Position numbers and translations under genes: made by a program | The notes under the pieces: generated by a model | Seen by the model: only the letters and a program-made list of their open reading frames with translations | Told to the model about the DNA's origin: nothing | Database searches by the model: none | Assembly: GCA_043814055.1 (NCBI GenBank) | Contig: JBDRKL010000007.1 | Span: 1 to 64,000, forward strand | Length of the DNA: 64,000 bases | Source of the DNA: an archaeon | Lineage (GTDB): Archaea; Undinarchaeota; Undinarchaeia; Undinarchaeales; JBDRKL01 | Direction of reading: 5' to 3' | In this document: positions 999 to 54,217 of the stretch, one piece after another | How positions within the stretch are numbered: the stretch's first letter is position 1 | How the letters are laid out: each line of letters starts with the position of its first letter

Positions 999-2804
999 CT
1001 ACCAACAACTGCACTGGTAATCCCTTGAACCAGTCCCGAGTTTTGAATTCTTCTTGCCCTGCTTTTCGTTGCAGAACATAAAGCAGCAGAAGCCTGTGTC
1101 CTTAATGTTCTTTGAGCCGCAGAACGCGCTGTTCGTGAAGTCCTTTGCCGGTTCCTGGTATTTCTCATTGCAGCCGTTCGGGAACTTTGGAGTGCCAACA
1201 ATTGCTGTAAAGATGTCGCCGGTTGCCTGTTTTCGCGGGACATCGTAGCAGGTTGAGTAAGTTGTTGTCTGAGGCGGCGCTTTCTTCACGGTTTTTGGAG
1301 CGGTCTTTGAGCTTGATTCTTCAACCTTGGGGGTTGTGTCCTTTTTCACAGCGGTCTTCTGCGCAGTTGAGGCGCTTTTCTGCACAGTGGTTTTCTTTTC
1401 TGTTTTGGCTGTTGAATCTGATTCCTTGCTGATTGTGTTTCCGCTGCGGGTTCCGTCGCTGACACTCAGCAGGTATGTTAATTCAACCTCAATCTTGTCC
1501 AGGTATTCGCAATCTGCCCCACTGCCCGTGGTGTCCATAAGTTCTGCCTTGACCTTGTAAATAGGTGTTGGCACATCAAATTCAATTGTCCTGCACCTAG
1601 TAGTTTGATAGGGAGCCCAGCTGGTCTTGCCCATTGAATGCCATTCCTTCTCTATTGGATTATAATACTTTAGGCCGATTTTGCGGTCCGCACAGCCCCA
1701 TTCGCCGCCGCGCTTTCCACAGGCCTTTATCTTGATGGCATTGACAATGTAGTCAAATGTCAGGGTGTGCTCTCCTGCGTTGTCCCATAAGTTTGGCACA
1801 GCAGAGTAATCCTGAGAATATGTTATACTTTTATTAAGAGAAGGAAAGGGCTTAGGAAGTTCAGGCTCTTTCTCCCCAAGCGCGCATTGTATTATGCTGC
1901 TGCCGTCGGTGTAGAAGAGAGTGTTCTTGTATGATGTAATTGCGGTTATCTTGCCGCTTGGACCGGATACTGCCTTGCAGTTGCTTAGCCCGCCCTGGCA
2001 GTGATAGATGCCGTCGGTTGTTCCAATAACGAGCTCTTCCTTGCCGTTGTTGTCAAGGTCAACTACAGCCATGCTCTCAATCTGCTTGTTGAATTTAAGC
2101 TGCAGTGCTGCCTGTTTGAGGCCGAAGCTATCTGACGTGATTTCGTCAGCCTCGTAAATGTAATCCTTATCTCCTGCATAGTCCTTTGCGAATATCAGCT
2201 CGTCAACTCCGTTACCGTTAAAATCGCCGACCGCCATTGCAGAGGTTGTATATGGTCTGTAGCTTGGGTTTCCAATCCAGCGGTCGTTCGTGCAGAAGCT
2301 CCAAGTGCTGTCAACCTGTTTTTCTTTTCTGACACCCTCACCCATCTCAGGGTACTCAGTGATTATAAAAGCGTGCGCGCCGCCCTTGTCGTAGCTGTAA
2401 AAGCCGTCCTTGCAGCGGTAGATGCGGTTCTTCCTGTCTGTAACGTAAATTAAATCATCAGGGTAATCGTTGTTCAAGTCCCCGCCAGCCATCGCGGTTA
2501 CCTTGCCGTCAACAGGGTAGAGTTCATTGCAGTTGTCAATGCGCATATTGTAAGTCCAAAGAGAACATTTGTAGATAGCGTTCTCGTCACCTTTTGAAAC
2601 TGCGTAGGCGAGTTCATTAATACCATTGCTTTTGAAATCACCAAGAGCCATTGCATCTATGTCTGAGCCGGCGCTGAATTTAGCCCCCTCCCCATTATTC
2701 AAATATGCTGGATCGCAGGAATACTCAAGCGCGAAAGCCCCTGAGCATATGCTCAAGAGTAGCATAGAAGCTATAATCGTAATAGTTACTGCTTTGTTGT
2801 CCAT
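999..2804 (-). CDS. Secreted FG-GAP-repeat adhesin-like protein with GGE-C module, Thr/Lys/Ser linker and C-terminal Cys-rich module
   Basis: Signal peptide; four FG-GAP-like motifs (MALGDFKSNGINEL, AGGDLNNDYPDDL, AVGDFNGNGVDEL, AVVDLDNNGKEEL); ends CCFMFC...QCSCW. Confidence 0.8.
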   Translation of the reverse strand: MDNKAVTITIIASMLLLSICSGAFALEYSCDPAYLNNGEGAKFSAGSDIDAMALGDFKSNGINELAYAVSKGDENAIYKCSLWTYNMRIDNCNELYPVDGKVTAMAGGDLNNDYPDDLIYVTDRKNRIYRCKDGFYSYDKGGAHAFIITEYPEMGEGVRKEKQVDSTWSFCTNDRWIGNPSYRPYTTSAMAVGDFNGNGVDELIFAKDYAGDKDYIYEADEITSDSFGLKQAALQLKFNKQIESMAVVDLDNNGKEELVIGTTDGIYHCQGGLSNCKAVSGPSGKITAITSYKNTLFYTDGSSIIQCALGEKEPELPKPFPSLNKSITYSQDYSAVPNLWDNAGEHTLTFDYIVNAIKIKACGKRGGEWGCADRKIGLKYYNPIEKEWHSMGKTSWAPYQTTRCRTIEFDVPTPIYKVKAELMDTTGSGADCEYLDKIEVELTYLLSVSDGTRSGNTISKESDSTAKTEKKTTVQKSASTAQKTAVKKDTTPKVEESSSKTAPKTVKKAPPQTTTYSTCYDVPRKQATGDIFTAIVGTPKFPNGCNEKYQEPAKDFTNSAFCGSKNIKDTGFCCFMFCNEKQGKKNSKLGTGSRDYQCSCW

Positions 2805-19020: not shown

Positions 19021-20337
19021 TTAGGCGAATTTGAAGATGCACCCTGAACTATCATCGTATCTTGAATAAATTTTGCCTTCCGGCGGGTTTGCCTTGCAGA
19101 CAGCAATTTTATCCTTTAGTGATTCCCCACTGTCCTCACATATGCAGCTGCCGCTTAAGAGGTGTGTTGCTATTTGGTTTTCAGCTTTGCACCTTTCATC
19201 ACAGCGGTTTATGGAAGCATCGTCTGTTGAATCAAATGACTTTATCAGGCAAGTCTTATCCGCCTTCCTTTCGCCGTCCCGGTGCTTCGGCTGGCCATAT
19301 GAATTGAGTTGTGTCCAGGCGATGTCCCTGCAGGATTCGTGAATATCTTCATCAGCTCCTCCCTCTTCTTCATAATCGTCAGACGGGTCAACAGCTCCGA
19401 AGAGTATCCTGCAGCGCTCTATCTGCTCCGCAGTTCCTGTAACGCCCATCTTTGCACTGGTTGAGTCATATTCCTTGTAGTGATAAGCAACGTCAGCGTT
19501 TATGGTGCAGAAGTCCTTTATCATTGAGGGAACATTGCCAGTGTATTTTAGGCTTGCAATTTTGAGCGCGGACTTTGAGCCTGCGCTCAGGGATATGTTG
19601 CCGAGTTGTTCCTCAGTTATTTTATTGCCGATTTCTTCCATGGTATCGCTGTCAACAAAAATGCACGGACCCTGGACTAACAGGTCAATGCTCTCTATTT
19701 TGCCCATTCCTTCCTCGCCAACCTGGCCGTCGCCAAGGTTTTCAAACATTACGCGAATGTCAAATGTGCGGCCGATTTTGGTGCCAGCTATCACAACCGG
19801 CTCGGTCTGGAGTGCCTCTATGCGCACTTGCACCGGGCCTGCGCTCGGGTGGTTCTCGCCCTCTTCCTTGAAGAGGCCTTGATTTCGCATAACCTCGTCC
19901 TCTGAGACTAGCAGAAGTTTTGCCCAGCCCTCAGAAGTGTAATCATAATCAACAACAACTGCGAGAGTGCTGCTGGTCGGGTCGCAGTTTGCTCGCAGGT
20001 CCCAGACCAGGCTTGCAGTATCGCCTGCTGTGCATATTGTAAGGTCTGGAGGCGTCATTTTTGATACTGATTGGGTTTCCTCCCCAACTTTGAAGCCTCC
20101 GTGTGCCCAGAGGCGCGCCTTTATGTTTGTTGCCTCTGCATTGCCCCTGTTCTGCAAGTCCACCCTGAGCTGTATCTCGTTTCCAACAGGTATGAGGTCG
20201 TAGCTAGGTGTTACGCTAAGTATGGATATGCCTTCCTTTTGGGACACCTCAAGAGGGCACTGCTCAGCGCCACTGATGCAACCTGACATAAACAGGACTA
20301 GAATAAGTATTACCGAGAGTTTGTATGTTGGCTTCAT
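19021..20337 (-). CDS. Lipoprotein-like surface protein, paralog 5, with C-terminal Cys-rich module
   Basis: FMSGCISG lipobox-like; shared Ig-like core (LQNRG..A, YDY.S, SAGPV, F.N.G.G, YHY); RCDERC...SGSCIC. Confidence 0.8.
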   Translation of the reverse strand: MKPTYKLSVILILVLFMSGCISGAEQCPLEVSQKEGISILSVTPSYDLIPVGNEIQLRVDLQNRGNAEATNIKARLWAHGGFKVGEETQSVSKMTPPDLTICTAGDTASLVWDLRANCDPTSSTLAVVVDYDYTSEGWAKLLLVSEDEVMRNQGLFKEEGENHPSAGPVQVRIEALQTEPVVIAGTKIGRTFDIRVMFENLGDGQVGEEGMGKIESIDLLVQGPCIFVDSDTMEEIGNKITEEQLGNISLSAGSKSALKIASLKYTGNVPSMIKDFCTINADVAYHYKEYDSTSAKMGVTGTAEQIERCRILFGAVDPSDDYEEEGGADEDIHESCRDIAWTQLNSYGQPKHRDGERKADKTCLIKSFDSTDDASINRCDERCKAENQIATHLLSGSCICEDSGESLKDKIAVCKANPPEGKIYSRYDDSSGCIFKFA

Positions 20338-20338
20338 C

Positions 20339-21328: not shown

Positions 21329-21363
21329 GATTGTGATATTTCACTTGAATGTTTATATAAGTA

Positions 21364-22902
21364 TCACTCGCTGCACGTGCAATATATATCCACGTCGCCG
21401 CTGTCACCAAATATGTACTTGCCCTTGGACTCGCAGAAGCTCTTGCAGCACTCTCCGTTGTCTATGGTGTTTGAGGCACAAACACCTTCATCCATATTGT
21501 CGCGGCAGAACTTGAACTGCTGGGCCTGCTGATCGTAGGTATCATCCTCAGCATCCTCAAGCTGGCACCCCTCGTTTCCGCCGTTCTTGATTAATGCGCT
21601 GTTGCCAGCATCATTCTCACAGCAGACGTAGGTTGGGCCAGCATATCGGGTTCCAACTTTTTCCCAGTAAACATTAGCCTCATCACTTGACACGTTAAGA
21701 ACTTCAAGCTGGATTAGGGCGCCCTTGTCCGTTATAATGCAATAAATATCGTTTTCTCTCGCAGTATAGAATTTTAGCATATTATATTCAGATACTGCGT
21801 TGCAATTGTCACTGGCACTTATGCCTGCTTCATTTTCGGACGAGATTGTGAATGTGCTGTACCCAAATTCGCGGGCAGAAACATCGCCGCCATCCACATT
21901 GTACCACGCGCCAAGCACGCCTTTGTCAAAGTCATACTCTTCCTTGCCATTCTTGAACGTGATTGTGCTCTTTTTCCTTTCGCGCTCATCCTCGTAATCC
22001 GCGTAATCGCCCTCGCTCTGGAGCGGGTCATTCTCAACTAGTATTGCAAGCGGGGCTGTGTCAATGTAGTACCTATATTTTATGGTGACTTCAATTATGT
22101 AGGACTGGGACTGGCCCGTGAATGTCAATGGAATGTCGCACTTGACCGCGCGCTCGCCTGCATTGCCAAAGAGGGTTATGGACTCCTTGTCAGAGTTGAG
22201 CCCGCTGCAGTTTGCAAGCGTGTCCTTTTCTAATTTGTCTCCGTTCACGCTCATTGAGAAGCCGGTTATTTGATCGTCCACAACCACTCCGGTTCCTGTG
22301 TTCCTGATTGACATGTCAATCGGGACATTTACATTGCCGCTGCGCACCTTTAGTGCGGGGAGTGAAACGATTGAAACAGTAATTGGAGCCTGAGAAGAGG
22401 TTGAGTAGGTTGCAAAGGAGCTCTCGCCTTTTTCGTCCATGTCCTCCTTGCTAACCAGGTAAACATTAGTGGTTGCCGTGCTGTTGTAAGTATAGGTTAC
22501 GCGGGCTTTGAGGGATTTTATTTCATCCTGAGCCACGCCTGGAGCGGTTGCAACCCAGAACGGCGAGAAAATTTCACCCTCCATTCCAAGCGCTTCATCC
22601 GGCGCAAACAGTCTGCTGTACTTCTTGATGTTCTCAACAACTGAGAAGCCCTCTTTTTGGAATAGTTGCGCCTCTATGCTCCTCGCGTCTGCGTCTCCGA
22701 TGTTCTGCACGTACAAATCTATGTCAACTGTGTCCAACTCGTCAACAGACGCTCTTGAGGAAAAACCAGTTATTATCAAGCCGTATGTGCGCCCCATTTC
22801 AGGGTTTGGCTCTAGATTACCAGTGTCTCCTGAGGAGATGCAACCTGAAAATAAGTTGACTAGAATAAGCAATAGAATTGTTGTTTTTAGTCCTAGTCTC
22901 AT
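21364..22902 (-). CDS. Lipoprotein-like surface protein, paralog 3, with C-terminal Cys-rich module
   Basis: LFSGCISSG; same core; ends TYVCC...ECCKSFCESKG...YCTCSE. Confidence 0.8.
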   Translation of the reverse strand: MRLGLKTTILLLILVNLFSGCISSGDTGNLEPNPEMGRTYGLIITGFSSRASVDELDTVDIDLYVQNIGDADARSIEAQLFQKEGFSVVENIKKYSRLFAPDEALGMEGEIFSPFWVATAPGVAQDEIKSLKARVTYTYNSTATTNVYLVSKEDMDEKGESSFATYSTSSQAPITVSIVSLPALKVRSGNVNVPIDMSIRNTGTGVVVDDQITGFSMSVNGDKLEKDTLANCSGLNSDKESITLFGNAGERAVKCDIPLTFTGQSQSYIIEVTIKYRYYIDTAPLAILVENDPLQSEGDYADYEDERERKKSTITFKNGKEEYDFDKGVLGAWYNVDGGDVSAREFGYSTFTISSENEAGISASDNCNAVSEYNMLKFYTARENDIYCIITDKGALIQLEVLNVSSDEANVYWEKVGTRYAGPTYVCCENDAGNSALIKNGGNEGCQLEDAEDDTYDQQAQQFKFCRDNMDEGVCASNTIDNGECCKSFCESKGKYIFGDSGDVDIYCTCSE

Positions 22903-22904
22903 TT

Positions 22905-23861: not shown

Positions 23862-23866
23862 TTTAT

Positions 23867-25275: not shown

Positions 25276-28200
25276 TTATTCTGAGCAGGTGCATATGTAG
25301 CCATCCGTGGCAACATAGGATTGGGTCTTTGAGCCGCACCAGGCCTCGCAGCACTCCTCGCTTGTTGAAAATTCACCACATATCCCGCCGGTGTTTCCGT
25401 AGCACGGCGCAAAGCTGTTTGACTCTGCAGGAGTCTTGTAGGTTCCGGATATGCTGCAAATGTTGTTGCTTTGCTTGGTGCTTTTTATGATTGAATAGTA
25501 CTTGTATTCCTTTGAATCCATGGCATAGCAGCAGCCGTAGTAAGTTTGGTCACCACCAGAATCTGAGCCATCTTCAGTTTCCATATCCTTTGCAGGCACA
25601 ACTCTACGGGTTAGTTCATAACTGAGGTCATCAAGGTAATTGCACGCTGAATACACGTTGCCGAAGCCGCAACCCCTGACCTCCACAATTTTTCCCTTAA
25701 CCCAGTCAACTTCTATAGCAGGTATGAATTCTTTTGAAACGCATTTGGATGAGCCGGATGAGCCCCATTCGCTGCCGATTTCAATTTCATCCCCATCCCC
25801 TGTTTTTATTGTGAACTTCATTTTTGCCTCATCACAGCAGCCGGATTCACCGCCACGCGCTCCGCATACTTTCACTTTTTCTATGTAGTCTATGGTATTG
25901 CCGTCGCCGCCGTAGTTAATCTCTCGTTCAGATGGGCAGTAGGTGGTTCCGTGACAGTCATCTCTGTTTCTGCTGGCGGTTTTAACGGATACCTTTTCTG
26001 GAATTGAATTGGTTGAATCTGGATTTGAGTCCCAGTCAGCCTCAAGCCCGTCGCTGTAGCCGTCGCCATCCGAATCAATTAAATAAGATTCCCCTGGGCT
26101 TGAACCTCCGTCTGAACCTGAACCAGAGTCATCGCCTGAACCCCCTTCACCAGACTCAACAACCTCAAGGTCTGTGCCGATTAACTGGATGTTCACCGAG
26201 CGCTTTTCAACATAGCCGTACTCGCTCAGGCGTACCTTGAATGTGTACGCTTCAAGGCTGCTTGGAGGGGGGTAGAGCACGCAGGCGAGCACAGGAGTTT
26301 CAAATGGATTGAGAGATTTCTCTAGTGACGGGACATCCTCCTTTGGCATAAGAACTGTGTAATTTGTAAAGCCAGGACCGGGGTGGAACCCTGAAGCTGC
26401 TGTTGGATAGGAAGTATCACTGGCGGAGTCCCCGCTTACCTTGCCCTCTATCTTAAAGTCGCATGTTTTTGAATCCATTATTGTGAATCCAGGAGGCATG
26501 TAGAGCCGGAGGTTCTCCTTTTTAATTCCAATTTTATATGGGTCGCCGTATTTTATCACTCCATCCGTGTCTAAATACCACTCGCGCGATCGTCCTGTAT
26601 CGTCAACATCCCTGACTTCCCCCTTGCCCTTGTTCGCAAACTGTACCATGAAAAGCGTTGGTATCCCATCTATCACTTCATCTTCCGCAGTGCCCATCGC
26701 GAGCATAAGCGGACCGACTGGAGAGTAGCTCTCTGAAATCTTGTTTGAAATTCTTTCTATTTTGCTTATCTCCTCTGAGGCCACTTGGGTCTCAAGGCTT
26801 GAGACAACCATCTGGCCTATCAGGTCTGTCGCTGGCTGGTACTTGTAAGGGATAACTAGCTCAATCTCTGGCTGCTGGATGTCGCCGTAATCAAGCATAT
26901 TACTTTCCCCCTTTACCTCTAGGCCATACCATACAACTCTGAGTGTGTCTTGTGGTTTAAGCGTGCATTTGCCAGTTTCATTCCATTCTGCCCTGCAACC
27001 GCCTGCCAAGTATGGGTCTATTTTTGTTTGTCTAAGAAGGTCGTCCAACGTGCAGATTGAAAGTGCATCTAGATTACCACTGCCAGCATCCTCTACAAAA
27101 TTCATTAAACTGCCCAGGCTTATGTCAAGCACACATTCCTCAGATTCCTTCAGTTCAGGATAGCTTGGCGGGATGAACTCTGCCTCAACGGTTCCAAGGT
27201 TTGTGTACTCAACAACAATGCTGAACGTCTGATAATCGTAAACTATTGCAGGGATGAGTGCCATCTTGGTTATTTCAAGGCCGTGCCATCCTGTGTCCTC
27301 GCCCGTGGGCGACGTGCAGAATGGATAGCAAGAACGGAACTTCATTGGGTTTTGAACAGGAACCCCCATTATGTCTTGCGGTATTACCATAGCTATGAAG
27401 TTCCAGAACGCGGCTGTTATTATATCAAGGAACTCGTTCAGCCAGCCAAGCAGGTTCTGCTCTATTGTGATTTTTAGTCCGCTTTGTATGGCTGAATTCT
27501 GCCAGAAGAACACTAGCGCGCCAATGAGAATTATCAGCAATATCACCGAGAATATCATTTTGCCTTTTGAGCCCATCTTGTAACCGCTGATGAACAAGTA
27601 TGAACACGGACCTGCGAATAGGAGCGTAAAGAATATTGATACTGTCCTGCTCTTTGTAAAATAAACAAGCGCGAGGAACGTGAAGAACAAGAACATCATA
27701 ACTGGCATCCATTTTTTCATCCCAGAGACTGCCTTGCCGGTTGCAATTTTGCTAGTTGCCTTTACGTGGTTCGCCCAGTCTTTACTAGCCTTGTCTTTTT
27801 TGCTCTCTGCGTCTGCAACCTTCCTGTCCCAGTCGGTTGCCGCACTAAGGTCTGTTTCAGGGTCAGGGCGACCACTTGTGAGCAGTGCGTTCAACTTTGC
27901 GGTTGCTTCATCCATCCCCTCTTTTGCAATTTGGAGGTCAGCGGTTTCGTTTGCTGCTTCAGTTACATTGGCAGCTCCTGCTGCGCCCATGGCAGCGGCT
28001 CCGGCGGCTGGGACATTCCTGCTCCCCGCCACTTGAGTCATTATCTGCCCAAGCTGGCCGAACTCGCCTTCTCCCATACCAAGTTCACCCATTTCAGCGA
28101 ATTCAGCTCCACCTGCCATAACTCCTTCCGCGCCTGCGGCAAGTCCACCGCCAGCAGCACCTATTGCAGGACCCCAGACTGGAGCAGTTAGAGCGAGGAT

Positions 28201-34167: not shown

Positions 34168-35067
34168 ATGAACCAAACACTTTTGATTGCAGCACTAGGA
34201 CTATTAATTATCGCCGGACTTTTGAGCGGAACAGATTATAATATGGATAATTCCGACACAGACACTAGCATAACTGGACAAGTAACTGCTAGTACAACAG
34301 AGACCACAGCGTATACTTGCTGCTATTACAAAAGTGGAAGCAAATACTATTATGCCATTGTAGGAAACCCGACAAAATCCAACGGGTGCAATGACAAATA
34401 CAAATATGCTAGCGGCAATGGTTTCAACTATTGCGGCAAGAATCTTGGAACATCCGTATGCACTTCTTCACAATCAGCCACCAGCAAGAACTGTTGTACT
34501 GCCTGGTGCACTAAGAAAGGCATGACCATATCCTCAAATTCTGGAGCTTCCTGTACTTGCAAAAAAACAGTTGTAACAGTGCCTAAGCAATATGGTTCCG
34601 GTGAAGGAACTCCTGCTAAATGTACTATGTGTTATGTAAATATGAATACTGGTAATGAGGAGAAGAACGGCCATTGCGGTACTACTTGTCCTGCGGAACG
34701 AACAATCTGGGATGGCCAAATTTGGCTGCGTGGCCTAAGCGGTAAATATGATATAGTTAAAATTCCAAGACCCGCGGTTAAGATGACAGTATGTGGTGTT
34801 ATTGGTGGAGAGAACTGGGCTTGTGTTGACAAAGCTAAAGTAAGATTTTACTACAAAGAGAAGGGGGGAGATGAGTGGATTAAAATAGCTGACAAGTGGA
34901 TTACTGGAAGACATAATAAAGGTTGTGTAGATGTGTCGTTAGACTATGTAAATATTGATGCAGTAAGAGGTAAAATAGTTGGCACTGCAAAGAAGGATAT
35001 GTGGGATACTGGGGACTCTTGTAGCTATCTAGATGAACTATACATCAAGAGTATTTATGTAGATTAA
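34168..35067 (+). CDS. Secreted Cys-rich protein (defensin-like module plus GGE-C module)
   Basis: N-terminal hydrophobic signal, ITGQV, YTCC...NCCTAWCTKKG...SCTC, CGVIGGENWAC...CSYLDEL. Confidence 0.85.
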   Translation: MNQTLLIAALGLLIIAGLLSGTDYNMDNSDTDTSITGQVTASTTETTAYTCCYYKSGSKYYYAIVGNPTKSNGCNDKYKYASGNGFNYCGKNLGTSVCTSSQSATSKNCCTAWCTKKGMTISSNSGASCTCKKTVVTVPKQYGSGEGTPAKCTMCYVNMNTGNEEKNGHCGTTCPAERTIWDGQIWLRGLSGKYDIVKIPRPAVKMTVCGVIGGENWACVDKAKVRFYYKEKGGDEWIKIADKWITGRHNKGCVDVSLDYVNIDAVRGKIVGTAKKDMWDTGDSCSYLDELYIKSIYVD

Positions 35068-42117: not shown

Positions 42118-44430
42118 ATGCCAGAGATGAAGCCCGGCTCATATGAAGTGCAGAAAGAAGGAGACCAGACTGTCATTCGGTTCAACTGGGTTGGCGTGCC
42201 TTACAGCCCGTCAATTGAGGATGACCCGGAAACAATGTCCCGCGTCATAGACGCGATTCTCCAGGTTAGGGATGTTGACCGCATAGTGGTCGCGGAGGCT
42301 TACGAATATGAATATCCGCCGGACCAAACTAAAATTCTTGTTGAAATTGCCGAGACAATAGACCGATTGCTCCGCGGGGAGAACATTCTGTCAAAAGCAA
42401 AGAAGACCATTGCGGGCTGCGACCGCTGCGCAACCGAGCGCTTTGCATTCGTTGAGGACTTGCTGATTAACAAGATGAGGCGCGACCCAATCGCTGCGTA
42501 TATGAGCGTTCTCCGCGAGCTCAAGGACGCGGACGCAACCATACAATCGGTGAAATTTGACAAGTGTGCGGCCTGCTATGAGAATTATATCAACAATGTG
42601 CTGGACGTAATAAAGAGTAGCCTTGAGCAAACCCAGCTGATAAAGGCAATACTGCCAATTATTAGACAGGTACGACCAGGGGACCGGCTGGCTTACAGCG
42701 AGGTGTTCTCGCCGACCATTATGCCGAACTTCACGCTCACAAGGTACATGATAAGGCCGCCCAGCGACGGAGAATTAATAGACCAGTACACTCTGCTGGG
42801 CGACACTGATGTTGAGATTTACAGAATACCCCGCAAGACCGAGAAGTACTATCACATTGTCCCGCCGGAGTTCAAGCTCCCTGAGGACGAGTACATGGTT
42901 CTTGGGCTCGCGAGGAAGGTCATGCTTGGCTACAAGCCGAGCACTACGAGATTCACCGAGCACACGAGGGATTACTTCCAGAGGGTTGGCGAAGATTTGA
43001 TAGGCACTGTAGCAGGGGAGCAGAATATTGATTTGGGCTATGAAAAGGTGAAAGCTCTCTCGCAAATTCTCACAAGGTATACCACGGGTCTGGGCATAAT
43101 GGAAATACTGCTCGCGGACCCGAAGCTGCAGGACATTTACATAAACGCGCCAATCGGCGAGATGCCGATTCGCGTTTTGCACGCAGACTGGGAAGAGTGT
43201 GTCACGAATCTTATTCCGACCAGAGAGGACGCGCAAGCAATGGCAGCACGCTTCAGGCTTGAATCCGGAAGACCGCTGGACGAGGCAGAGCCAGTCTTGG
43301 ATACTAGCATTACGGTCCCAGGGGGAAGGGCGCGTGTCTGCGTTATCGCGAAGAACCTGAGCCCGCGCGGCTTGGCGTTCTGCTTCAGGAGGCACAGGAG
43401 CAAGCCGTGGACCTACCCGCTTTTCATAGCAAACAATATGATGAACTCGCTGTCAGCAGGGTTGTTGTGGTTCATCATAGATGGGGGGAGAACCATGCTG
43501 TTCGCTGGACCGCGAAGCTCTGGAAAAACCTCAATGCTTTCATCCACGATTGTGGAGATTATGAAAAAGTACCGCATCTTGTCAGTTGAAGACACGCTTG
43601 AACTGCCAATTGACGAGTACAGGGCGCTTGGGTTCAACGTGCTCTCAATGAAGGTGCAGTCTGTAATTACAAAACTTGAGGCAGAAGTCCCAGCTGACGA
43701 GGGAATAAGAACCGCGCTGCGCCTGGGTGACTCGTGTTTGATTATTGGCGAGGTTCGTTCAACTGAAGCAAAGGCGCTGTATGAGGCAATGCGGGTCGGC
43801 GCGCTGAGCAACGTTGTTGCAGGAACTATTCACGGGGATACTCCGTATGGTGTCTGGGACCGTGTTGTTAATGACCTGGGAGTTCCAACCACATCTTTCA
43901 AGGCAACTGACATACTCATAATGCCTGCCCCGATTAGGAGTGCGGATGGAATGCATAGGTACAGGCGCGTTGTCACGATTACAGAGGTCGGCAAGAACTG
44001 GACCGAGGACCCGCTGAAAGAAGGCGGTTTCACTGAATTGTTCAAGTATAATGCAAAGACAGACTCTCTTGAGGCGACCAAGGAGTTTCTGAACGGGGAC
44101 TCTGAAATTGTTAAAGCGATTGCATCGCGGGTCAAGGAATGGTCCGGGAACTGGGAAACCACGCTTGGCAACATTCAGCTAAGAGCGGACATAAAACAGG
44201 GCATTGTTGACCTTGCCAAGAAGAGCAAGAGGCCGGAGCTACTTGAGGCGCCGTTCGTTGGAGATGCCAACAACATGTTCCACATATTCTCTTCAGAAGT
44301 TAATCGCGAGCTTGGCGCGTTTGACTCCAAGGAAATACTCAAGAGGTGGAGGGACTGGTCACGCGACGAGGTAACTGGCAAGAACAAGAAAAAAGCAACG
44401 GAGACTGTGGAGTGGGAGTCCGGGGAATAA
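42118..44430 (+). CDS. Type IV pilus assembly ATPase (VirB11/TadA/PilB family)
   Basis: Walker A GPRSSGKTS, EDTLEL Asp box, Walker B IIGEVR, TIHG His box; N-terminal CxxC pairs. Confidence 0.95.
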   Translation: MPEMKPGSYEVQKEGDQTVIRFNWVGVPYSPSIEDDPETMSRVIDAILQVRDVDRIVVAEAYEYEYPPDQTKILVEIAETIDRLLRGENILSKAKKTIAGCDRCATERFAFVEDLLINKMRRDPIAAYMSVLRELKDADATIQSVKFDKCAACYENYINNVLDVIKSSLEQTQLIKAILPIIRQVRPGDRLAYSEVFSPTIMPNFTLTRYMIRPPSDGELIDQYTLLGDTDVEIYRIPRKTEKYYHIVPPEFKLPEDEYMVLGLARKVMLGYKPSTTRFTEHTRDYFQRVGEDLIGTVAGEQNIDLGYEKVKALSQILTRYTTGLGIMEILLADPKLQDIYINAPIGEMPIRVLHADWEECVTNLIPTREDAQAMAARFRLESGRPLDEAEPVLDTSITVPGGRARVCVIAKNLSPRGLAFCFRRHRSKPWTYPLFIANNMMNSLSAGLLWFIIDGGRTMLFAGPRSSGKTSMLSSTIVEIMKKYRILSVEDTLELPIDEYRALGFNVLSMKVQSVITKLEAEVPADEGIRTALRLGDSCLIIGEVRSTEAKALYEAMRVGALSNVVAGTIHGDTPYGVWDRVVNDLGVPTTSFKATDILIMPAPIRSADGMHRYRRVVTITEVGKNWTEDPLKEGGFTELFKYNAKTDSLEATKEFLNGDSEIVKAIASRVKEWSGNWETTLGNIQLRADIKQGIVDLAKKSKRPELLEAPFVGDANNMFHIFSSEVNRELGAFDSKEILKRWRDWSRDEVTGKNKKKATETVEWESGE

Positions 44431-46517
44431 TGGCGCTTTTTAAGAAGAAGGACAAGAACGATGAAATTCCAATACTGAAAGAGCAGAGGGAACTCCAGGA
44501 GCTTGTCAAGAAGTACAGGGAAAAAGAGCGGGAGAAGAGTTTAGTTGATAACGAGTTCACGCTTGAGTCTAACGAATACCAGCAATTTGTAGGGGAACGC
44601 GCGGAAGGAAAAAAATCGCACACTTATTTTGAAAAACTATGCAGCTTTTCGGGCAAGCACCTCAAAGTAGGCATGAAGAAGAAGGATGAAGACAAGATGA
44701 ATGAACATCTCTACTTCATTGGATACAACATAGAGGCAAGGGACGTGATAAGCTTCAGCATACTCACTTTTTTGATTTCAGTATTCATTGCTGGCGCGCT
44801 CCTGCTATTCTCGTTCCCGGCAGCGCTTATAATAATAATGATTGGATTGAGTGGATTGTTTGGAATTCAGCAATACCCGAAATACCTCTCCAAGCTTTAC
44901 ATAATGGACACCCTGAACGAGATGCCACTCGCGATAACGTATATGGTCATATACATGCGCTCAGCACCGACTCTTGAGGGCGCGGTGAGGTTCACGGCGA
45001 GGCACTTGAGCGGGTCGCTCGGCAGGGATCTTGAGAAAATGCTCTGGGACCTGGAAACTAATATTTACACGAATATGGATGACGCGCTCGCGAACTACGC
45101 AGCCAAGTGGAGGGATGCGAACAAGAACTTCTCAAATTCAATAGAGGTTTTGAGGAACTCTGAGAAGATTGGGAACGAGGGCGAGAGACTCAAGATGCTG
45201 GACGAAGCCACTAACATAATACTTAGCGGGAATTTGGAGACAATGGAATCCTTCGGCCGCAGCTTGAAGATGCCAATCATAGTCCTTTACATGATGTGCA
45301 TAGTGCTCCCGGTTATGGGATTGGTCATTGCGCCCGTGATGACAACGCTGGTTTCGCAGGGAGTTAGCGTGAACGCCATTGCGCTTGTGTATAACATAAT
45401 TCTTCCGCTGTTCGTTTACTTCTTCATCAAGTTCATAATGAGCAAGCGGCCCGGCTCTTTCATGAACCCGGACATAAGCACCCACCCTGGGCTTCCAAAG
45501 CCAGGGCATATGAGAGTTGGGAGCCATGACCTGCCGCTTTTGCCACTGTCAATAATCATATTTTTCGTTGTGTCACTCCCAACATTCCTGATGTTTGCGA
45601 ACCCTCCAGAGAATGTCGGCTATAGCCTGGCAAACATCCTGAAGTCCCTGGCAATCGTGTGGGGCGCTGCGCTGGCGATAGGCTTGTATGGCTGGGGGAG
45701 CTCATTCCAGAAGCTCAGTGTCAGGAAGAACCTGATTGAGCTTGAGCGCGACTTGGATATTGCCATATACACGATGGCTGACAAGCTCAAGATGGGCATA
45801 CCCATAGAGCGCGCGGTTGCAGACACCTCAGAATCCATGAAGACAGGCGCAATGAAAGAGTTCCTTGACAAGATTGGGACGAACATGAAGAACTTTGGAA
45901 TGCCCTTTGAGACTGCCATATTTGACCCAAAAAACGGCGCTCTGATAAATTATCCGTCAAAGCTGGTCAGGACGATAATGGAGGTTCTGGTGGAGAGCGC
46001 GCAGAAGGGAATAAAAGCCACTGCGACTTCAATGGCCACCATAGGCACGTACCTAAAGAACCTGAAGAAGGTCAACCTCACGATTGAAGAGCTTTTATCT
46101 GAGACCGCGAACACGATGAAGTTCCAGGCGCAGTTCATGACCTCATTCATTGCCGGCATCATAATCTCGCTTGACGTTCTCCTGTTCAAGATACTAACCG
46201 AGCTCGGGGGCAAGATAAACAGCTTGGACGTGTCCGCAGATGTAACTGGCAGCGTTGGGGTAAGCGGCATATTCCAGAACAGCATGTTCAACGTCGCGTC
46301 CGCGATACCTGCTGAACAAATGCAGATAGTAGTTGGCATCTATATGATACAGGTCACGTTCCTGCTCTCACTGCTCATCAATGGAGTCCAGAATGGGAGA
46401 GATAACATATACAGGAACTATATGGTGGGGAAAAACCTAATGATAGCCACGCTTGTTTACACGATTGCAATGCTGGCAGGAGTGTTCCTGTTTTCCGCGT
46501 TCAAACTGGGGGTATAA
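44430..46517 (+). CDS. Type IV pilus membrane platform protein (duplicated TadB/TadC/PilC-like)
   Basis: Two T2SSF-like halves (EMPLAITYM...PTLEGAV...GSLGRDL; LKMGIPIERA); TAATG coupling with the ATPase. Confidence 0.9.
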   Translation: MALFKKKDKNDEIPILKEQRELQELVKKYREKEREKSLVDNEFTLESNEYQQFVGERAEGKKSHTYFEKLCSFSGKHLKVGMKKKDEDKMNEHLYFIGYNIEARDVISFSILTFLISVFIAGALLLFSFPAALIIIMIGLSGLFGIQQYPKYLSKLYIMDTLNEMPLAITYMVIYMRSAPTLEGAVRFTARHLSGSLGRDLEKMLWDLETNIYTNMDDALANYAAKWRDANKNFSNSIEVLRNSEKIGNEGERLKMLDEATNIILSGNLETMESFGRSLKMPIIVLYMMCIVLPVMGLVIAPVMTTLVSQGVSVNAIALVYNIILPLFVYFFIKFIMSKRPGSFMNPDISTHPGLPKPGHMRVGSHDLPLLPLSIIIFFVVSLPTFLMFANPPENVGYSLANILKSLAIVWGAALAIGLYGWGSSFQKLSVRKNLIELERDLDIAIYTMADKLKMGIPIERAVADTSESMKTGAMKEFLDKIGTNMKNFGMPFETAIFDPKNGALINYPSKLVRTIMEVLVESAQKGIKATATSMATIGTYLKNLKKVNLTIEELLSETANTMKFQAQFMTSFIAGIIISLDVLLFKILTELGGKINSLDVSADVTGSVGVSGIFQNSMFNVASAIPAEQMQIVVGIYMIQVTFLLSLLINGVQNGRDNIYRNYMVGKNLMIATLVYTIAMLAGVFLFSAFKLGV

Positions 46518-47295: not shown

Positions 47296-47296
47296 G

Positions 47297-48511: not shown

Positions 48512-48555
48512 GCAAACTAGCAAACAATTTAAATAAAGGGGGTTTATGACAGCTT

Positions 48556-49206: not shown

Positions 49207-50339
49207 ACCGGAACCTGAGGAATAAGAGAGGTGGACCGAGTTCTTTCGTGCTCATAGTGATAACCATTTTAATCATACTTATTTCCGGAGCCGCAATAGG
49301 CAGTTTCAGCGCGAGCGCATCTTCAATAATCCCAGGAAAGGTGAGTGTGCAGAAGTGCAGATGGACTCTTGACATAAAGCACAAGTGGGATAATATGGTT
49401 GACGGGGGAGCGAAGGATATAGCAGATATAGGTAGAGATGTTGACAGCCATACTTGGCTCCCAGGTGAGAATGTGCAAAGAGTTGGCAATACGTTCAGTG
49501 GTAATGGCTGGAATAGTAATTTGGAGTTAGGAGCCAATGATATGGAAGAGGGGGGTCTGGATTCACTAAAGCTTAGCGTGGATATGTGCGTGGCGAACAC
49601 AAAGGTTAGTTGTATAGGTCCTGCGGATTATGTCGCTGACTGTCTGTACTCGTTGAGCACTGACACTTACTACGGGCTTGGCGGGGGAAAGGAAGAGGCA
49701 AAGACCAAGAATTACATTGACGATACCACGTGGGAAAATTTTGTCCTTTTCAACATATCGGTCAACATAACAAGACCAGGGAACATAAAACTGTATGGGG
49801 GCTGTGACAATTACACAACCCAAAGCGATGTAACCACGAGTACTTTCACGTTCCAGCAAATGACTGACGGAAACTGCAACGTCACCATACGGAATCTGGA
49901 CGAGGCACTTATTACGCTTGTTATGATATCAAAATGCCAGGATTATGGACCAGGGGATACTGAGAACTGCAAGTGCTTCCCGTGGGCTCATATTGGAAAC
50001 CAGCTTGGAAACGGGCTTCACAATAACAATGTGAGCGATGATGCGAGCTGGTCACCCAATTCAGGAACATACTTGAGAGAGGATGTCTTCACTAGCGCGC
50101 CATATCCAAGTGACTTCTCAAACTGGACATCTGCACCGCATCCGGACTATGCAGGGTGTGGCGGGAAATTCCCAGGAGACGATGATATTCAGAATTATAT
50201 ATCAGACCCGAGGGACGGGCTCTCTGTTGGGGTTGACCACGACCCGATATTAATAACCTCAGAATTTAGGATTGGAGAACAGGAGAATGCTTTTACCCGG
50301 CTTGAGCTCACACGGGATCGCGTGTATATGTATGGATAA
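49203..50339 (+). CDS. Large Cys-rich pilin-like/adhesin, copy 2
   Basis: MNRNLRNKRG/GPSSFVLIVITILIIL; shares TYYGLGGG, LITLVMIS.CQ.YGP.D..NCKCFP, NGLHNN, GCGG.FPGD with 47297. Confidence 0.8.
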   Translation: MNRNLRNKRGGPSSFVLIVITILIILISGAAIGSFSASASSIIPGKVSVQKCRWTLDIKHKWDNMVDGGAKDIADIGRDVDSHTWLPGENVQRVGNTFSGNGWNSNLELGANDMEEGGLDSLKLSVDMCVANTKVSCIGPADYVADCLYSLSTDTYYGLGGGKEEAKTKNYIDDTTWENFVLFNISVNITRPGNIKLYGGCDNYTTQSDVTTSTFTFQQMTDGNCNVTIRNLDEALITLVMISKCQDYGPGDTENCKCFPWAHIGNQLGNGLHNNNVSDDASWSPNSGTYLREDVFTSAPYPSDFSNWTSAPHPDYAGCGGKFPGDDDIQNYISDPRDGLSVGVDHDPILITSEFRIGEQENAFTRLELTRDRVYMYG

Positions 50340-50475
50340 ATCAACAAACAAAAAAGCGGAACTCAGCATGACCTTCGGGACACTGATAGGGATAGTGATG
50401 GTTCTTGTGATTTTCGTAGTAGTAATGCTATTTTACAATCTTCTTGAAAAAATCGTGACAGGGATAACAGGATGA
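50332..50475 (+). CDS. Micro-pilin (class III signal peptide)
   Basis: MDKSTNKKA/ELSMTFGTLIGIVMVLVIFVVVML. Confidence 0.7.
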   Translation: MDKSTNKKAELSMTFGTLIGIVMVLVIFVVVMLFYNLLEKIVTGITG

Positions 50476-50621
50476 AAATGAACAAGAAAGGCCAGATAAG
50501 CGCGAGCATGTTTATGATGATAGTTATGGCCATAGTTGGCATGCTGCTCATAGTGCTTGCCTATCAGCTTACTGCAAAGGGGAGCGCGCTTGGGCTGGAA
50601 GCAATACGCATATTTGGCTGA
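50472..50621 (+). CDS. 49-aa micro-pilin (class III signal peptide)
   Basis: Hand translation MKMNKKG/QISASMFMMIVMAIVGMLLIVLAYQLTAKGSALGLEAIRIFG; not in the ORF track. Confidence 0.75.
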   Translation: MKMNKKGQISASMFMMIVMAIVGMLLIVLAYQLTAKGSALGLEAIRIFG

Positions 50622-50638
50622 GCTGATATGGGTTAACA

Positions 50639-50646
50639 TTTAAATA
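50639..50646 (+). promoter_or_regulatory. Candidate TATA box for the pilin 50676 sub-operon
   Basis: TTTAAATA about 30 nt upstream of ATG 50676; a similar box lies at 48528-48535 upstream of 48556. Confidence 0.45.
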
Positions 50647-50675
50647 CTAGACGCCTAAATTAGAGCGGTGATTAT

Positions 50676-51062
50676 ATGACTGGAAATAAAGGGCAAGGAC
50701 TATCAATAAACATGCTGGTGGTCATAGCTCTCGCAGTTTTTGTTATTTTTCTCGTGTTCGGTTTCCTGACCGGAGGCTGGTCTTACTTTGCCGGCGCGTT
50801 CGGCGGGCTGACACAGCAGGGCGAGATGGACATTGCGAGGAGCAAGTGCCAAACCGACTGCACTCTATACATAACGCAGGGCAGGCCGCTTATTGACGAA
50901 AACGATGCGGACGACTACTGGAACAAGAAGCTTCTGCAAACAAGGAACGATGTTGACACGAACGGTGACGGCATAGTTGATCAATCTGACAAGAGTTACT
51001 CTTGCAGAACAGGTTTGAACCCAATGATGAGTGCAAGCGAGTGCGCTATCCGTACTAGTTAA
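50676..51062 (+). CDS. Type IV pilin, candidate major pilin
   Basis: MTGNKG/QGLSINMLVVIALAVFVIFLVFGFLTGGW; CQTDC; DVDTNGDGIVD loop. Confidence 0.85.
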   Translation: MTGNKGQGLSINMLVVIALAVFVIFLVFGFLTGGWSYFAGAFGGLTQQGEMDIARSKCQTDCTLYITQGRPLIDENDADDYWNKKLLQTRNDVDTNGDGIVDQSDKSYSCRTGLNPMMSASECAIRTS

Positions 51063-51068
51063 AGCAAG

Positions 51069-51287
51069 ATGAAACTTTTTGACAACAGAAAGGGCATATC
51101 TATTGGGATAAATATGATAGTAGTGTTAGCAGTCGCCCTTGTTGTCTTGATTGTCATTACTGGCTGGTTCCTTGGAGGATTCGGTGAAATAGGCGGTGCG
51201 ATACAGAACGTGTTCGGCGGAGCATCGGAACAGGCGAACGGCACTCACGTTGGCGAGCTTATTAACAATACAGGATGGGGTGGATAA
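51069..51287 (+). CDS. Short type IV pilin
   Basis: RKG/ISIGINMIVVLAVALVVLIVITGWFLGGF. Confidence 0.85.
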   Translation: MKLFDNRKGISIGINMIVVLAVALVVLIVITGWFLGGFGEIGGAIQNVFGGASEQANGTHVGELINNTGWGG

Positions 51288-51754
51288 TGAATAAGAAAGG
51301 AATGGAGCTTGGAATAAATTTGATTGTCATATTTGCAATATCGCTTGTAGTGCTGATAGTTATGATTGGCTGGTTCCTCGGAGGAGTTTCAGGAATTGGA
51401 GGCGCACTGAGGGGCGTTTCAGGAGACGCTGAGGATAAGGCAGATACCACTAATTTTAGCCAAGGGATAGAAGATGCAATTGGAGGGATTGGTGCGATTG
51501 GTGGGAGTGGAGGTTCAAGCGGGAGCGAGCAGGTTTATGTTTGCTGCAAGTATACAGTAGGTGGCGGATATGATGTATACAACGCCTGTGGAACAGGCTA
51601 CACGAGAGCCTCGTGGTCCACCAGCGTTGGAGGACACTGCTCATATCGCTGCTCAGATGCAACAGACAGCCAAGTATGCTGCCAGAACTATTGCAAAAGC
51701 ATGGGCGATGATTATGTAAGCTACAACTCGAATGAATGTACGTGCAGGAGTTAA
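51287..51754 (+). CDS. Type IV pilin with C-terminal defensin-like Cys module
   Basis: MNKKG/MELGINLIVIFAISLVVLIVMIGWFLGG; Gly/Ser linker; VYVCC...VCCQNYCKSMG...ECTCRS. Confidence 0.85.
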   Translation: MNKKGMELGINLIVIFAISLVVLIVMIGWFLGGVSGIGGALRGVSGDAEDKADTTNFSQGIEDAIGGIGAIGGSGGSSGSEQVYVCCKYTVGGGYDVYNACGTGYTRASWSTSVGGHCSYRCSDATDSQVCCQNYCKSMGDDYVSYNSNECTCRS

Positions 51755-51755
51755 C

Positions 51756-52214
51756 ATGAAAATGAAAATCAAAAATAAGCGCGGAGCAGAACTTGCGATT
51801 GGAACAATCGTTACAATAATAATAGTGCTCATAGTCCTCATAGTCATAGCGACCTGGTTCCTTGGCGGGTTTGACCAGATAGGGAGCAGCATATCCAACA
51901 TTGGGAACAGCACAGCCGGGGAGTCAACAGGGGTTATTGATGCTCTGAGGAGATCTACCAGCTCAGGGCAGGTCTACCTTTGCTGTAAGAAAGTAGTTGG
52001 CAATACCGCTTCATACACAACTAAAAAGAATGAGTGCCCACCTGATTTTCCAACTGTAGCGAACGACTTTTATATGTCGAGTGGTTACCTGACCTGTGGG
52101 TACTTATGCACCAACGCAAACGATGCCGAGAGCTGCTGCAGGGACTATTGCTCCACCCCCATCAAGGGTGGGTATGTAAGGGTAAGCGGCGGCAAGTGCT
52201 ACTGCAGGAGCTAA
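51756..52214 (+). CDS. Type IV pilin with C-terminal defensin-like Cys module
   Basis: KNKRG/AELAIGTIVTIIIVLIVLIVIATWFLGGF; VYLCC...SCCRDYCSTPIKGGYVRVSGGKCYCRS. Confidence 0.85.
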   Translation: MKMKIKNKRGAELAIGTIVTIIIVLIVLIVIATWFLGGFDQIGSSISNIGNSTAGESTGVIDALRRSTSSGQVYLCCKKVVGNTASYTTKKNECPPDFPTVANDFYMSSGYLTCGYLCTNANDAESCCRDYCSTPIKGGYVRVSGGKCYCRS

Positions 52215-52215
52215 A

Positions 52216-52407
52216 ATGAAAATTAATAACACCCGTGGTGCGGAAATGGCATTCAGCACAATCATAGTAGTCATACTGCTCCTGATAGTTTTTACAGTGA
52301 TTGCGATGTTCTTCCTGGGGCAGACTGACCTGATATTTCCAGCGCTTGAAAACATCTCAGAGAGCGCGACCAATCAATTGCTGGCAGCTGTCACGCCTCC
52401 AGCATAA
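52216..52407 (+). CDS. Short type IV pilin
   Basis: NTRG/AEMAFSTIIVVILLLIVFTVIAMFFLG. Confidence 0.8.
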   Translation: MKINNTRGAEMAFSTIIVVILLLIVFTVIAMFFLGQTDLIFPALENISESATNQLLAAVTPPA

Positions 52408-52440
52408 AGCTAATAAAGCGCGGTAGCTTTCTCCTATATT

Positions 52441-52875
52441 GTGAAAAGTGCAAGGTCGCGAAAGGGTGTAGGGATTACTATGGATTTCATAATCACGCTA
52501 GTCATAATCGTGGTTATGTTTTTTACCCTGCCTGAGGCCGCCGGGCAGTTAATGACTTCTTCTATTTTGGCCGAGTCTCACGCAAGAAACCTTGGGAATG
52601 CATTTGACGTAATAGCGCTGTCCCCTGGAAATGTTACAATAGAAAAATCCTGCCCGAAGGACGTGATTTTCGTTATAGATCATAACCAGATACTGGTACT
52701 GCTTGACGGAATGTCTGGCACGTATACTGCTGATTATTATTACATGATACCAACTGACGCGCGCTTCCCAACAGACCGAGTTGTCATAGACTGCAACATC
52801 AACACGATTGTTGAGCTTAGGAAATATGAGGAGGGGGGATACACGCAAATAGAGTATGAGGGGACGGACGGATGA
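52441..52875 (+). CDS. Minor pilin-like protein
   Basis: RSRKG/VGITMDFIITLVIIVVMFF; ARNLGNAFDVIALSPGNVTI. Confidence 0.75.
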   Translation: MKSARSRKGVGITMDFIITLVIIVVMFFTLPEAAGQLMTSSILAESHARNLGNAFDVIALSPGNVTIEKSCPKDVIFVIDHNQILVLLDGMSGTYTADYYYMIPTDARFPTDRVVIDCNINTIVELRKYEEGGYTQIEYEGTDG

Positions 52876-53753
52876 AGGGAAAAGCACTCAGAAACCAGAA
52901 AGGAGACGTGGTTGCTTCAAAACCATTCAGCCTTATTTTGTTCGCAATACTGATTGTTTTTGTCGTGAGCACCCTGACGCTGATGCAGCTCACGGCCAAC
53001 AGCACTGCAACCTCAATCATGTTCCACGACGCGAATAGCTCGGTCAATATGATAACCGAAGCCCTCATAACTTACCCTGAATGCTTCGGCAGCGGGGAAA
53101 AAGGAATTCTGGACAAGAGCAAGGTGGAGGACATTGAGAACAGGAGAAATTGCGTGCACAAGGGGCCGTACACCTGGGAGATTGACATTTTTGCTGAGAA
53201 TGAATATGGAGGGGAAATAAACCAGCACGCGGACAGCGACTGCGGCATACTCAGTACTGCAACCCAACACGGGTCGTCAATAGATTATGATGTTAGTAAA
53301 TACGTGACTCCATACCTGGTGGAGCCGATTACGATAAGGGGCGAAGGCAGCGATTATGTTGGATGGATGTATTTTTACTTAGGAAGCATGGAATTTGCAA
53401 TGGTGCTGGACAAGAAAGATAGGGATAATTATGAGCTTACTGTTGTAAATGTTGGCAATTGCCACCAGCAAGATGTCACCTATGACGTGAGGATTAGCAT
53501 AGCGAACGTGAGCAATGGTGAGATACCAGTAGATTTCATTGACACCTATGGCATAGAATTTGAGGGTGACACCGACGGCGACCACATCGTGAAGCAGGTC
53601 TTTTCCCTTGGCATTGATGAAAACAAGAAAATGGCTCTGAAGATAAACAATCCTGATAACGTGAAATTGCCAAGCGATTACATGATACGCGTGGTTGGGC
53701 AGATAGACGGGCATCCTGCTTACTCAAAGACAATGTGGAGGCGGGTGACGTGA
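52872..53753 (+). CDS. Minor pilin-like protein
   Basis: RNQKG/DVVASKPFSLILFAILIVFVV; LITYPECF...GILDKSK. Confidence 0.75.
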   Translation: MKGKALRNQKGDVVASKPFSLILFAILIVFVVSTLTLMQLTANSTATSIMFHDANSSVNMITEALITYPECFGSGEKGILDKSKVEDIENRRNCVHKGPYTWEIDIFAENEYGGEINQHADSDCGILSTATQHGSSIDYDVSKYVTPYLVEPITIRGEGSDYVGWMYFYLGSMEFAMVLDKKDRDNYELTVVNVGNCHQQDVTYDVRISIANVSNGEIPVDFIDTYGIEFEGDTDGDHIVKQVFSLGIDENKKMALKINNPDNVKLPSDYMIRVVGQIDGHPAYSKTMWRRVT

Positions 53754-54217
53754 GAATTTCAAAAAACCGCAGAGGCGTTAGCGAACTGCCATTCGCTGCT
53801 TTTGCCCTGATACTTGTAATCATGGGGCTTGGGTGCCTGATGTTCTTTTTCAGCATAGTGCTCCCACTGGTTGTCGGAGGCGGGGTTGAAAGTACGTACG
53901 TGGCGCAGGAAGACGCGGCAATCGCATCCCGGCAGGTGCTGAGCATTCTGAGAACGCAGGACTCAGACGGTGTGACCTATTCAAAAAGGATAGAGTCCGC
54001 AGTTGAGGGGGAGAATGTTGACGAGACCAAGGAACTAATACGGTCTTACTTGAGAACCAGTGGCACTTGCTACAACCGGTTTTACGCGCAGCACAATGGG
54101 GCAGACCATCTTCTCATAGAGAATAACCAAGTGACAGATTACATAATGAAATATGAACTGCCGGCAAAGGACGGGAACAAGATAACCGTTGTCCTGGAGG
54201 TGTGCGAATGGCGCTGA
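53750..54217 (+). CDS. Minor pilin-like protein
   Basis: GTG start at 53750: KNRRG/VSELPFAAFALILVIMGLG. Confidence 0.75.
   Translation: MRISKNRRGVSELPFAAFALILVIMGLGCLMFFFSIVLPLVVGGGVESTYVAQEDAAIASRQVLSILRTQDSDGVTYSKRIESAVEGENVDETKELIRSYLRTSGTCYNRFYAQHNGADHLLIENNQVTDYIMKYELPAKDGNKITVVLEVCEWR

Follow-up and report, generated by a model that had tools for sequence, protein, structure and literature searches.

The modular design of pilins has been shown for PilB of Streptococcus sanguinis and is widespread in bacteria (PMC8179133); in this species PilB carries a vWA module and PilC a lectin module (PMC8179133, PMC9934059). Among small disulfide-rich peptides, 74 bacterial cis-defensins have been assigned to five classes (PMC11561630), and actinomycesin homologues were found only in actinobacteria and myxobacteria (PMC8819291). 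A host-dependent life has been described for the Undinarchaeota, with unknown partners and no host established (PMC7414124). Prokaryotic cis-defensins have so far been reported from bacteria; neither PMC8179133 nor PMC11561630 contains the word 'archaea', and a literature search of limited coverage found no archaeal cis-defensin. Here we describe two neighbouring pilin-like proteins of an undinarchaeon, encoded in a stretch of 64,000 nucleotides (the window; positions 1 to 64,000 of contig JBDRKL010000007.1, assembly GCA_043814055.1), that both end in a ten-cysteine module. We give a probability of roughly 0.55 to the joint reading that this module originated in this archaeal lineage (or changed there past recognition), spread by shuffling to ten exported proteins, and acts on modular pilins and surface proteins as a lineage-specific head for attachment or recognition.

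The module spans about 80 residues (range 74-90) with ten cysteines in the order CC..C..C..C..CCxxxC..CxC. Pilin-like protein 1 (155 amino acids, 51287..51754, plus strand) consists of a KKG class-III-like signal, a hydrophobic helix, a Gly/Ser linker and the C-terminal module (51530-51751, E 4e-21). Pilin-like protein 2 (152 amino acids, 51756..52214, plus strand; its database copy begins two codons later) has a KRG class-III-like signal, a hydrophobic helix, a short linker and the module at its C-terminus (51969-52211, E 1e-25). In this pair the module forms the final 74-81 residues, with ten cysteines each. A first-pass annotation of the window had reported this Cys pattern at the end of both proteins (the tail it quoted belongs to the second), together with four further copies, all of which were found within a few bases of the places it gave. 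These are at the C-terminus of a 601-residue FG-GAP protein (999-2804; module 1002..1265, minus strand, E 3e-20, eight cysteines, after a Lys/Thr/Pro-rich linker), of a 512-residue lipobox protein (21364-22902; 21367..21636, minus strand, E 6e-24) and of a 1115-residue polytopic membrane protein (25276-28623; 25279..25548, minus strand, E 2.5e-23, after an acidic Gly/Ser/Asp linker). The only N-terminal copy lies in a 299-residue protein (34168-35067; 34306..34569, plus strand, E 1.4e-23), behind a signal or anchor and a Thr/Ser linker.

A profile built from these six copies recovered them from the genome at E 1e-25 to 3e-20 and added four more (E 3e-11 to 4e-7), located on contigs C4 and C9 and farther down contig C7, so that the genome total is ten, six in the window and four elsewhere. 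Using HMMER with all filters off on 7,901 six-frame open reading frames (ORFs), ten reached E ≤ 1.1e-6 and the eleventh best had E 0.11. Of the 7,901 ORFs, 11 contain the tail motif CC-x3-C-x(10-22)-C-x-C, namely the ten modules and one junk frame, versus a mean of 2.5 and a maximum of 6 in 20 shuffles. The recurrence of the module is far beyond chance. A seventh carrier had been proposed in the window, with a reduced CDERC...GSCIC form in the lipoprotein encoded at 19021. Its C-terminus (19024..19341, minus strand) gave no match to the profile at E ≤ 10, again with filters off, and an hhalign probability of 0.57% over 9 columns; we dropped it, which leaves six of the seven.

Pairwise identity among the ten copies is 20-43%, and they are therefore old duplicates. 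Eight Cys columns of the alignment never vary, and almost the same is true of Tyr 3, Cys 5, Tyr 27 and Phe 34. Conserved aromatic positions are the Tyr before CC, a Tyr/Phe in the middle of the domain and the Trp/Tyr/Phe in CCxxWC, and the aromatic content of the module is 12-15%. The number of cysteines is even in all ten copies, and the FG-GAP copy, with eight, lacks both the leading Cys of the CC pair and cysteine 4, which would look like the removal of one disulfide. Even counts and the joint loss of cysteines 1 and 4 thus argue for disulfide pairs, and the module is probably an autonomous extracytoplasmic domain with five of them. The same two observations speak against a domain whose ten cysteines ligate metal ions or clusters and form no disulfides, as do the export of the carriers and the lack of any conserved His in the alignment of the ten copies. 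Such a metal site would suit the failure to find a gene for VKOR or a DsbA-like oxidase (see below), yet we consider it highly improbable.

The surroundings of the two pilin-like genes in related genomes were used for comparison. The locus contains a gene for a type II/IV secretion-family ATPase (770 amino acids, 42118..44430, plus strand; PF00437, E 5e-13), the probable pilus assembly motor, with orthologues in 14 of the 17 genomes of the phylum including its own; in the 13 of 16 other genomes, identity is 56-75% (51% for one truncated match). Among the stretches beside ten of these orthologues, four (genomes G003, G004, G012 and G001) reach the pilin array, and all four have the same tandem small genes. 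The likeness of the counterparts to the module-bearing pilins is confined to the first ~55 residues. Identity is 35% over 117 aligned residues, with nearly all identical positions lying N-terminally, and 38% when the first 56 residues are taken. The counterparts end in other small Cys-rich tails, with 4, 6 or 8 cysteines, which score at most 4.7 bits against the module profile. A likeness of the module tail to the CC...C...CxW tail of a pilin head in G004 and G012, suggested by MAFFT, was rejected at profile scores of at most 1.6 bits.

A shared N-terminal part followed by unrelated Cys-rich tails therefore points to a conserved pilin stem with a head exchanged between families, and, judged on the predicted proteins, archaeal pilin-like proteins clearly exchange heads here. 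Their modular nature is seen from both ends: the module is also present on eight non-pilin carriers, and the pilin part is kept in relatives with other heads. Those other heads are specific to their genus and hardly reused (G003 has a single copy, G004 and G012 have two apiece), and only in this genome does a pilin head double as a domain on eight other envelope proteins. As in bacterial modular pilins, the predicted role of the pair is the presentation of a binding module on a filament. Unlike the bacterial proteins, they are archaeal, have a class-III-like signal and possess a pilin part that is little beyond the hydrophobic helix; their head is a very small ten-Cys domain that belongs to no family and has neither a homologue outside the genome nor a significant match to a solved fold.

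The assignment as pilin-like is drawn from motif and context. Both module proteins have a short basic N-terminus, KKG or KRG and a long hydrophobic stretch, as do at least 10 neighbours, and they belong to a tandem array of seven small genes with class-III-like signals (50472..52875, plus strand). The five array members without the module, each with this signal, are at 50472-50621, 50676-51062, 51069-51287, 52216-52407 and 52441-52875 (plus strand), and larger proteins with the signal motif are encoded at 47285-48511, 49203-50339, 52872-53753, 53735-54217 and 54202-55485 (plus strand), giving at least 12 genes with a class-III-like N-terminal motif between 47285 and 55485. A Peptidase_A24 (PF01478; 37.3 bits, above cut-off) is encoded elsewhere in the genome, on contig C13. 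A 723-residue membrane protein with about nine hydrophobic segments by hydropathy and no family match (44346..46517, plus strand) is a candidate platform protein. None of the curated pilin models of Pfam and NCBIfam was over its cut-off for the two module proteins; the match to Pilin_PilX (E 0.008, 16.5 bits versus a cut-off of 25) falls within the Cys module. The neighbouring pilin at 50676-51062, with 4-6 cysteines and a DxDxDGDG calcium-site-like motif, is conserved across the order beyond its N-terminal helix (53% identity to the G004 counterpart over the first 102 of 128 residues, reaching into the head) and may be a major or core subunit; its counterparts are at L040:9784-10164(-), L038:7076-7884, L041:9391-9789 and L047:9192-9587.

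Homologues of the module were sought widely. With the ten-copy profile, 1,835,955,588 representative proteins gave 11 matches at E ≤ 0.001. Seven of the eight that were inspected are products of the same genome; the eighth, a 1,142-residue tandem-repeat protein, matches only profile positions 23-45, 17 times, and is spurious. The other three agree in length and match position with the 512-, 1115- and 601-residue proteins of the window. Carriers looked up by identity were singleton clusters in six of six cases, with one contig each. The module was not found in any of 60 relatives, including all 12 other genomes of the order and all 16 other species genomes of the phylum, many of which are 72-86% complete; counting its own genome, it is present in 1 of 61 of this sample, 1 of 13 of the order and 1 of 17 of the phylum. 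It was also absent from the loci around 20 relatives of the ATPase from outside the phylum (best match E 0.97). A single-protein metagenome scan with the 299-residue carrier found no relative, and one with pilin-like protein 2 gave one match, to residues 1-25 only, in an unrelated 403-residue bacterial-type prepilin.

Searches of curated and structural collections agree. A profile search of PDB sequences gave no match at E ≤ 10, and the six Pfam families listed for the ten copies at that threshold include no cysteine-stabilised alpha-beta (CS-alpha-beta) family. Pilin_PilX (0.0017) and the scorpion calcine family (0.0054) each match one copy of ten, which is not meaningful; the calcine family is a knottin family and not a CS-alpha-beta fold. 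The ESM Atlas gave no usable feature match, and the likeness of a low-confidence model to N-terminal domains of Arg-tRNA synthetase (template modelling score 0.40-0.47) was disregarded. The first-pass picture of a lineage-specific, shuffled domain of disulfide type holds up, the profile having recovered own-genome proteins and one spurious match, with 60 negative relatives. The module is an orphan domain family, real and unusual. That the organism is of DPANN type also fits, the archaeal genome being small (0.98 Mb, 82% complete; the 17 species genomes of the phylum span 0.6-1.1 Mb) and the nearest outside relatives of the ATPase being mostly titled Aenigmatarchaeota (11 of 20 loci).

The module had originally been described as defensin-like, with a CxxxC helix stapled to a CxC strand. 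Two copies were modelled with AlphaFold using the ten-row alignment. Model 1, the head of pilin-like protein 2, has a predicted local distance difference test (pLDDT) score of 64.6, with strands 2-7, 13-18, 68-73 and 76-80 and a helix at 53-62. Model 2, from the 34168 carrier, has a pLDDT of 87.5 and a predicted template modelling score of 0.76, with strands 2-10, 13-19, 73-79 and 82-87 and helices 41-46 and 60-70. Except for the short first helix, the order of elements is the same. In both predicted models the long helix contains CCxxxC and the last strand of the following hairpin contains CxC, and this modelled arrangement is the secondary-structure layout of the CS-alpha-beta motif. CxxxC and the later CxC, spaced by 14-19 residues, are invariant in all ten copies. 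We give about even odds to a CxxxC helix stapled to the CxC strand as a local device. A homodimer prediction of the module scored 0.00, making no call either way.

Using Foldseek against the PDB, model 2 returned 21 rows, all with E ≥ 4.9 and none a defensin. Among the rows for the weaker model 1 were a plant defensin and a plectasin analogue (E 6-8.5) as well as FS50, all at E 6-9, tied with unrelated rows and far below significance. Two defensin-like or cystine-dense solved chains recurred in both VIA searches, 6ay7_A and AtLURE1.2 (PDB 5yah chain C), the latter aligning to the C-terminal half of the module over 34 of 39 residues at a root-mean-square deviation of 3.1. AtLURE1.2, a defensin-like plant signalling peptide, is a recognition ligand and not a toxin. 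Matches to the copper-binding domain of the amyloid precursor protein (3ktm_A, 1owt, 2m05) are not significant, at 7-15% identity and with about half of the module covered. In the predictions, the module is a confidently modelled domain without a significant solved-fold match.

Of the defensin-like description, the placement of CxxxC in a helix and CxC in the last strand stands, as a prediction in both models, while family, framework and significant fold match are lacking. The six-Cys expression C-x(2,18)-C-x3-C-x(2,12)-C-x(4,17)-C-x-C, used in PMC11561630 to find bacterial cis-defensins, matches none of the ten copies because there is no Cys between CxxxC and CxC, that is, the Cys of the middle strand is missing. 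In the same source, cis-defensins are small free secreted peptides with precursors of 30-130 residues, and the module is a fused domain of 74-90 residues. Its length is about double that of a defensin (roughly 30-55 residues in cis-defensins). It has ten cysteines, two strands and a helix being contributed by its CC...C...C...C N-terminal half, is always fused or tethered, is not uniformly cationic, and has neither a sequence match nor a significant structural match to cis-defensins. By framework, size, fusion and family models, the module is not a member of the defensin family.

A defensin-type effector, in which the C-terminal half would be a true CS-alpha-beta unit and the module would act on host or competitor cells by harming their membranes or blocking a target, is nonetheless the alternative to which the invariant CxxxC...CxC, its placement in both models and the Foldseek rows of the weaker model would point. 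We judge it very unlikely: those rows tie with unrelated ones and the better model gave no defensin, AlphaFold may have placed the motif from learning, and the cis-defensin framework is absent, as are matches to the Pfam CS-alpha-beta families of defensins and scorpion toxins (the one calcine match mentioned above is not of that fold). The isoelectric point of the module ranges from 4.1 to 9.2, four of the ten copies are acidic and all are covalently tethered, which also disfavours the membrane attack put forward at first; a membrane-active weapon is unlikely.

The architecture of the carriers bears on two more alternatives. Nine of the ten modules are placed exactly at the C-terminus, comprising the very last residues, and five of these nine are preceded by low-complexity linkers of Gly/Ser, Lys/Thr/Pro or acidic type. 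The tenth carrier is cut by a contig end (149 amino acids seen). Complete carriers range from 125 to 1115 amino acids, the module always being fused to a larger protein, and all nine have an N-terminal hydrophobic export or anchor segment. Two of the nine have class-III-like signals and one a lipobox-like ...SGC, and the other six have Sec-type signals or membrane anchors (four a signal peptide or single anchor, two several membrane segments), so that the three export routes named in the first-pass annotation (class III, lipobox, Sec) are all represented.

A terminal position on unrelated passengers is typical of sorting and anchoring domains. The module could accordingly be a docking or anchoring device, like a dockerin or a C-terminal sorting domain, that fastens exported proteins to a common part of the cell's own envelope, be it the S-layer, the pilus shaft or one another, and its position in nine of ten carriers with unrelated passenger domains, together with its reuse on ten proteins of this genome only, would fit. 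A second self-anchor would be redundant because the nine complete carriers already have an N-terminal anchor or signal; in addition, one copy is N-terminal and no partner has been identified. We regard this explanation as improbable, though it comes first when the alternatives are ranked by confidence, ahead of the defensin-type effector, then a stabilising or inhibitor knot, and finally metal binding. The knot would be an inert cap guarding the free C-terminus of surface proteins, or a protease-inhibitor-like domain acting on foreign proteases. Scores for it are at noise level, and conserved exposed aromatics and long flexible tethers fit a binding head better; there is little chance that it is correct.

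The preferred reading, an adhesion or recognition head, takes this anatomy as a whole: an N-terminal anchor or filament stem is followed by a spacer, then a flexible tether and, distally, a compact, aromatic-rich disulfide knot, which is the build of an adhesin. In this scheme the carriers would be exported unfolded, and the module would oxidise outside the cell to a compact knot of beta-hairpin, helix, helix and beta-hairpin, with the CCxxxC helix probably stapled to the CxC strand and the flexible low-complexity linker holding it at the far end of the carrier. In the pilins, the A24 prepilin peptidase would process the N-terminal hydrophobic helix and the neighbouring ATPase would build it into a filament. 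The heads would then stud the pilus, or its tip should the two be minor pilins. The head is predicted to bind a ligand on a partner cell or surface, which the conserved aromatics and the 12-15% aromatic content hint may be a glycan. Pili might engage the same ligand from a distance, and lipoproteins and membrane proteins from close by.

Several points weigh against this reading. The heads of the relatives are not reused on other proteins, and the wide reuse in this genome may mean something other than pilus adhesion. Genes for VKOR (PF07884) or a DsbA-like Thioredoxin_4 protein (PF13462), which might account for the oxidation of the ten cysteines, were not found in the 82%-complete genome. Binding by the head is a prediction, and the pilin call has the support of motif and context while no pilin family model scores. 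Finally, the family consists of predicted proteins of a single metagenome-assembled genome, for which a look-up of sequencing runs, RNA included, listed none. As a separate observation, the oxidase genes were not found although the genome encodes many exported Cys-rich proteins.

Other features were observed around the carriers. A second shared module of about 100-160 residues, marked by VCGxxGGE..C and C-x-YLD motifs, accompanies the ten-Cys module in three of them, 999-2804(-) (residues 306-464), 25276-28623(-) (residues 865-1033) and 34168-35067(+) (residues 140-299). It also ends a TSP3-repeat protein at 58069-59748(+) (residues ~466-565, E 3e-13) and has a weak match (E 0.009) in the ORF 3-917(-), which runs off the start of the window. 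At 19021-25222 (minus strand), five tandem paralogous genes (19021, 20339, 21364, 22905 and 23867) encode proteins with lipobox-like signals ending in ...SGC(I), three of which give sub-threshold CARDB matches; only the product of 21364 has the ten-Cys module, and the gene for the 1115-residue carrier is the next one upstream on the minus strand, at higher coordinates. Directly after the 34168 carrier, a nucleotidyltransferase gene (PF18765/PF01909) overlaps a HEPN-domain gene (PF05168) in a layout of MNT-HEPN toxin-antitoxin type (35232-36228, plus strand).

Within the pilus locus, 46645-50339 (plus strand) is a duplicated pair, each unit comprising a Yip1-domain membrane protein (46645-47295; 48556-49206) followed by a class-III-like protein of about 400 residues with 10 cysteines. 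These two large proteins (47285-48511 and 49203-50339) are 38% identical (E 1e-77), and similar large Cys-bearing proteins with pilin signals are found at the same place in relatives. In a metagenome-assembled genome record titled Aenigmatarchaeota (L028:12384-18737, plus strand), an ORF of 2,090 amino acids with 155 cysteines directly follows the orthologous pilus ATPase; it is a further giant Cys-rich protein linked to a pilus locus of DPANN archaea, and by profile it is unrelated to the module.

A more far-reaching version of the head reading, which we consider doubtful, would make the module the host-recognition determinant of an uncultured Undinarchaeota-type DPANN archaeon. It would be a new five-disulfide fold in whose C-terminal half the CxxxC/CxC staple of cis-defensins was independently reinvented, for the first time in Archaea. 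Its display on pili would serve capture, and that on eight other envelope proteins close contact. As every sister lineage has a different Cys-rich pilin head, partner specificity would follow from which head is present.

The weight of these findings is limited by their origin in a single metagenome-assembled genome and in predictions. They illustrate cleanly that a domain may be modelled with confidence and still lack any sequence relative among 1.8 billion proteins, and a module of ~80 residues is small enough to be expressed, folded, solved and used as a probe on environmental cells. The idea of the modular pilin would be extended from bacteria to archaea. The means by which DPANN archaea find and hold their partners are largely unknown, and a conserved pilin stem with disulfide-rich heads swapped between families is a concrete candidate for a specificity determinant, as is, likewise, a head copied onto ten envelope proteins in one lineage.

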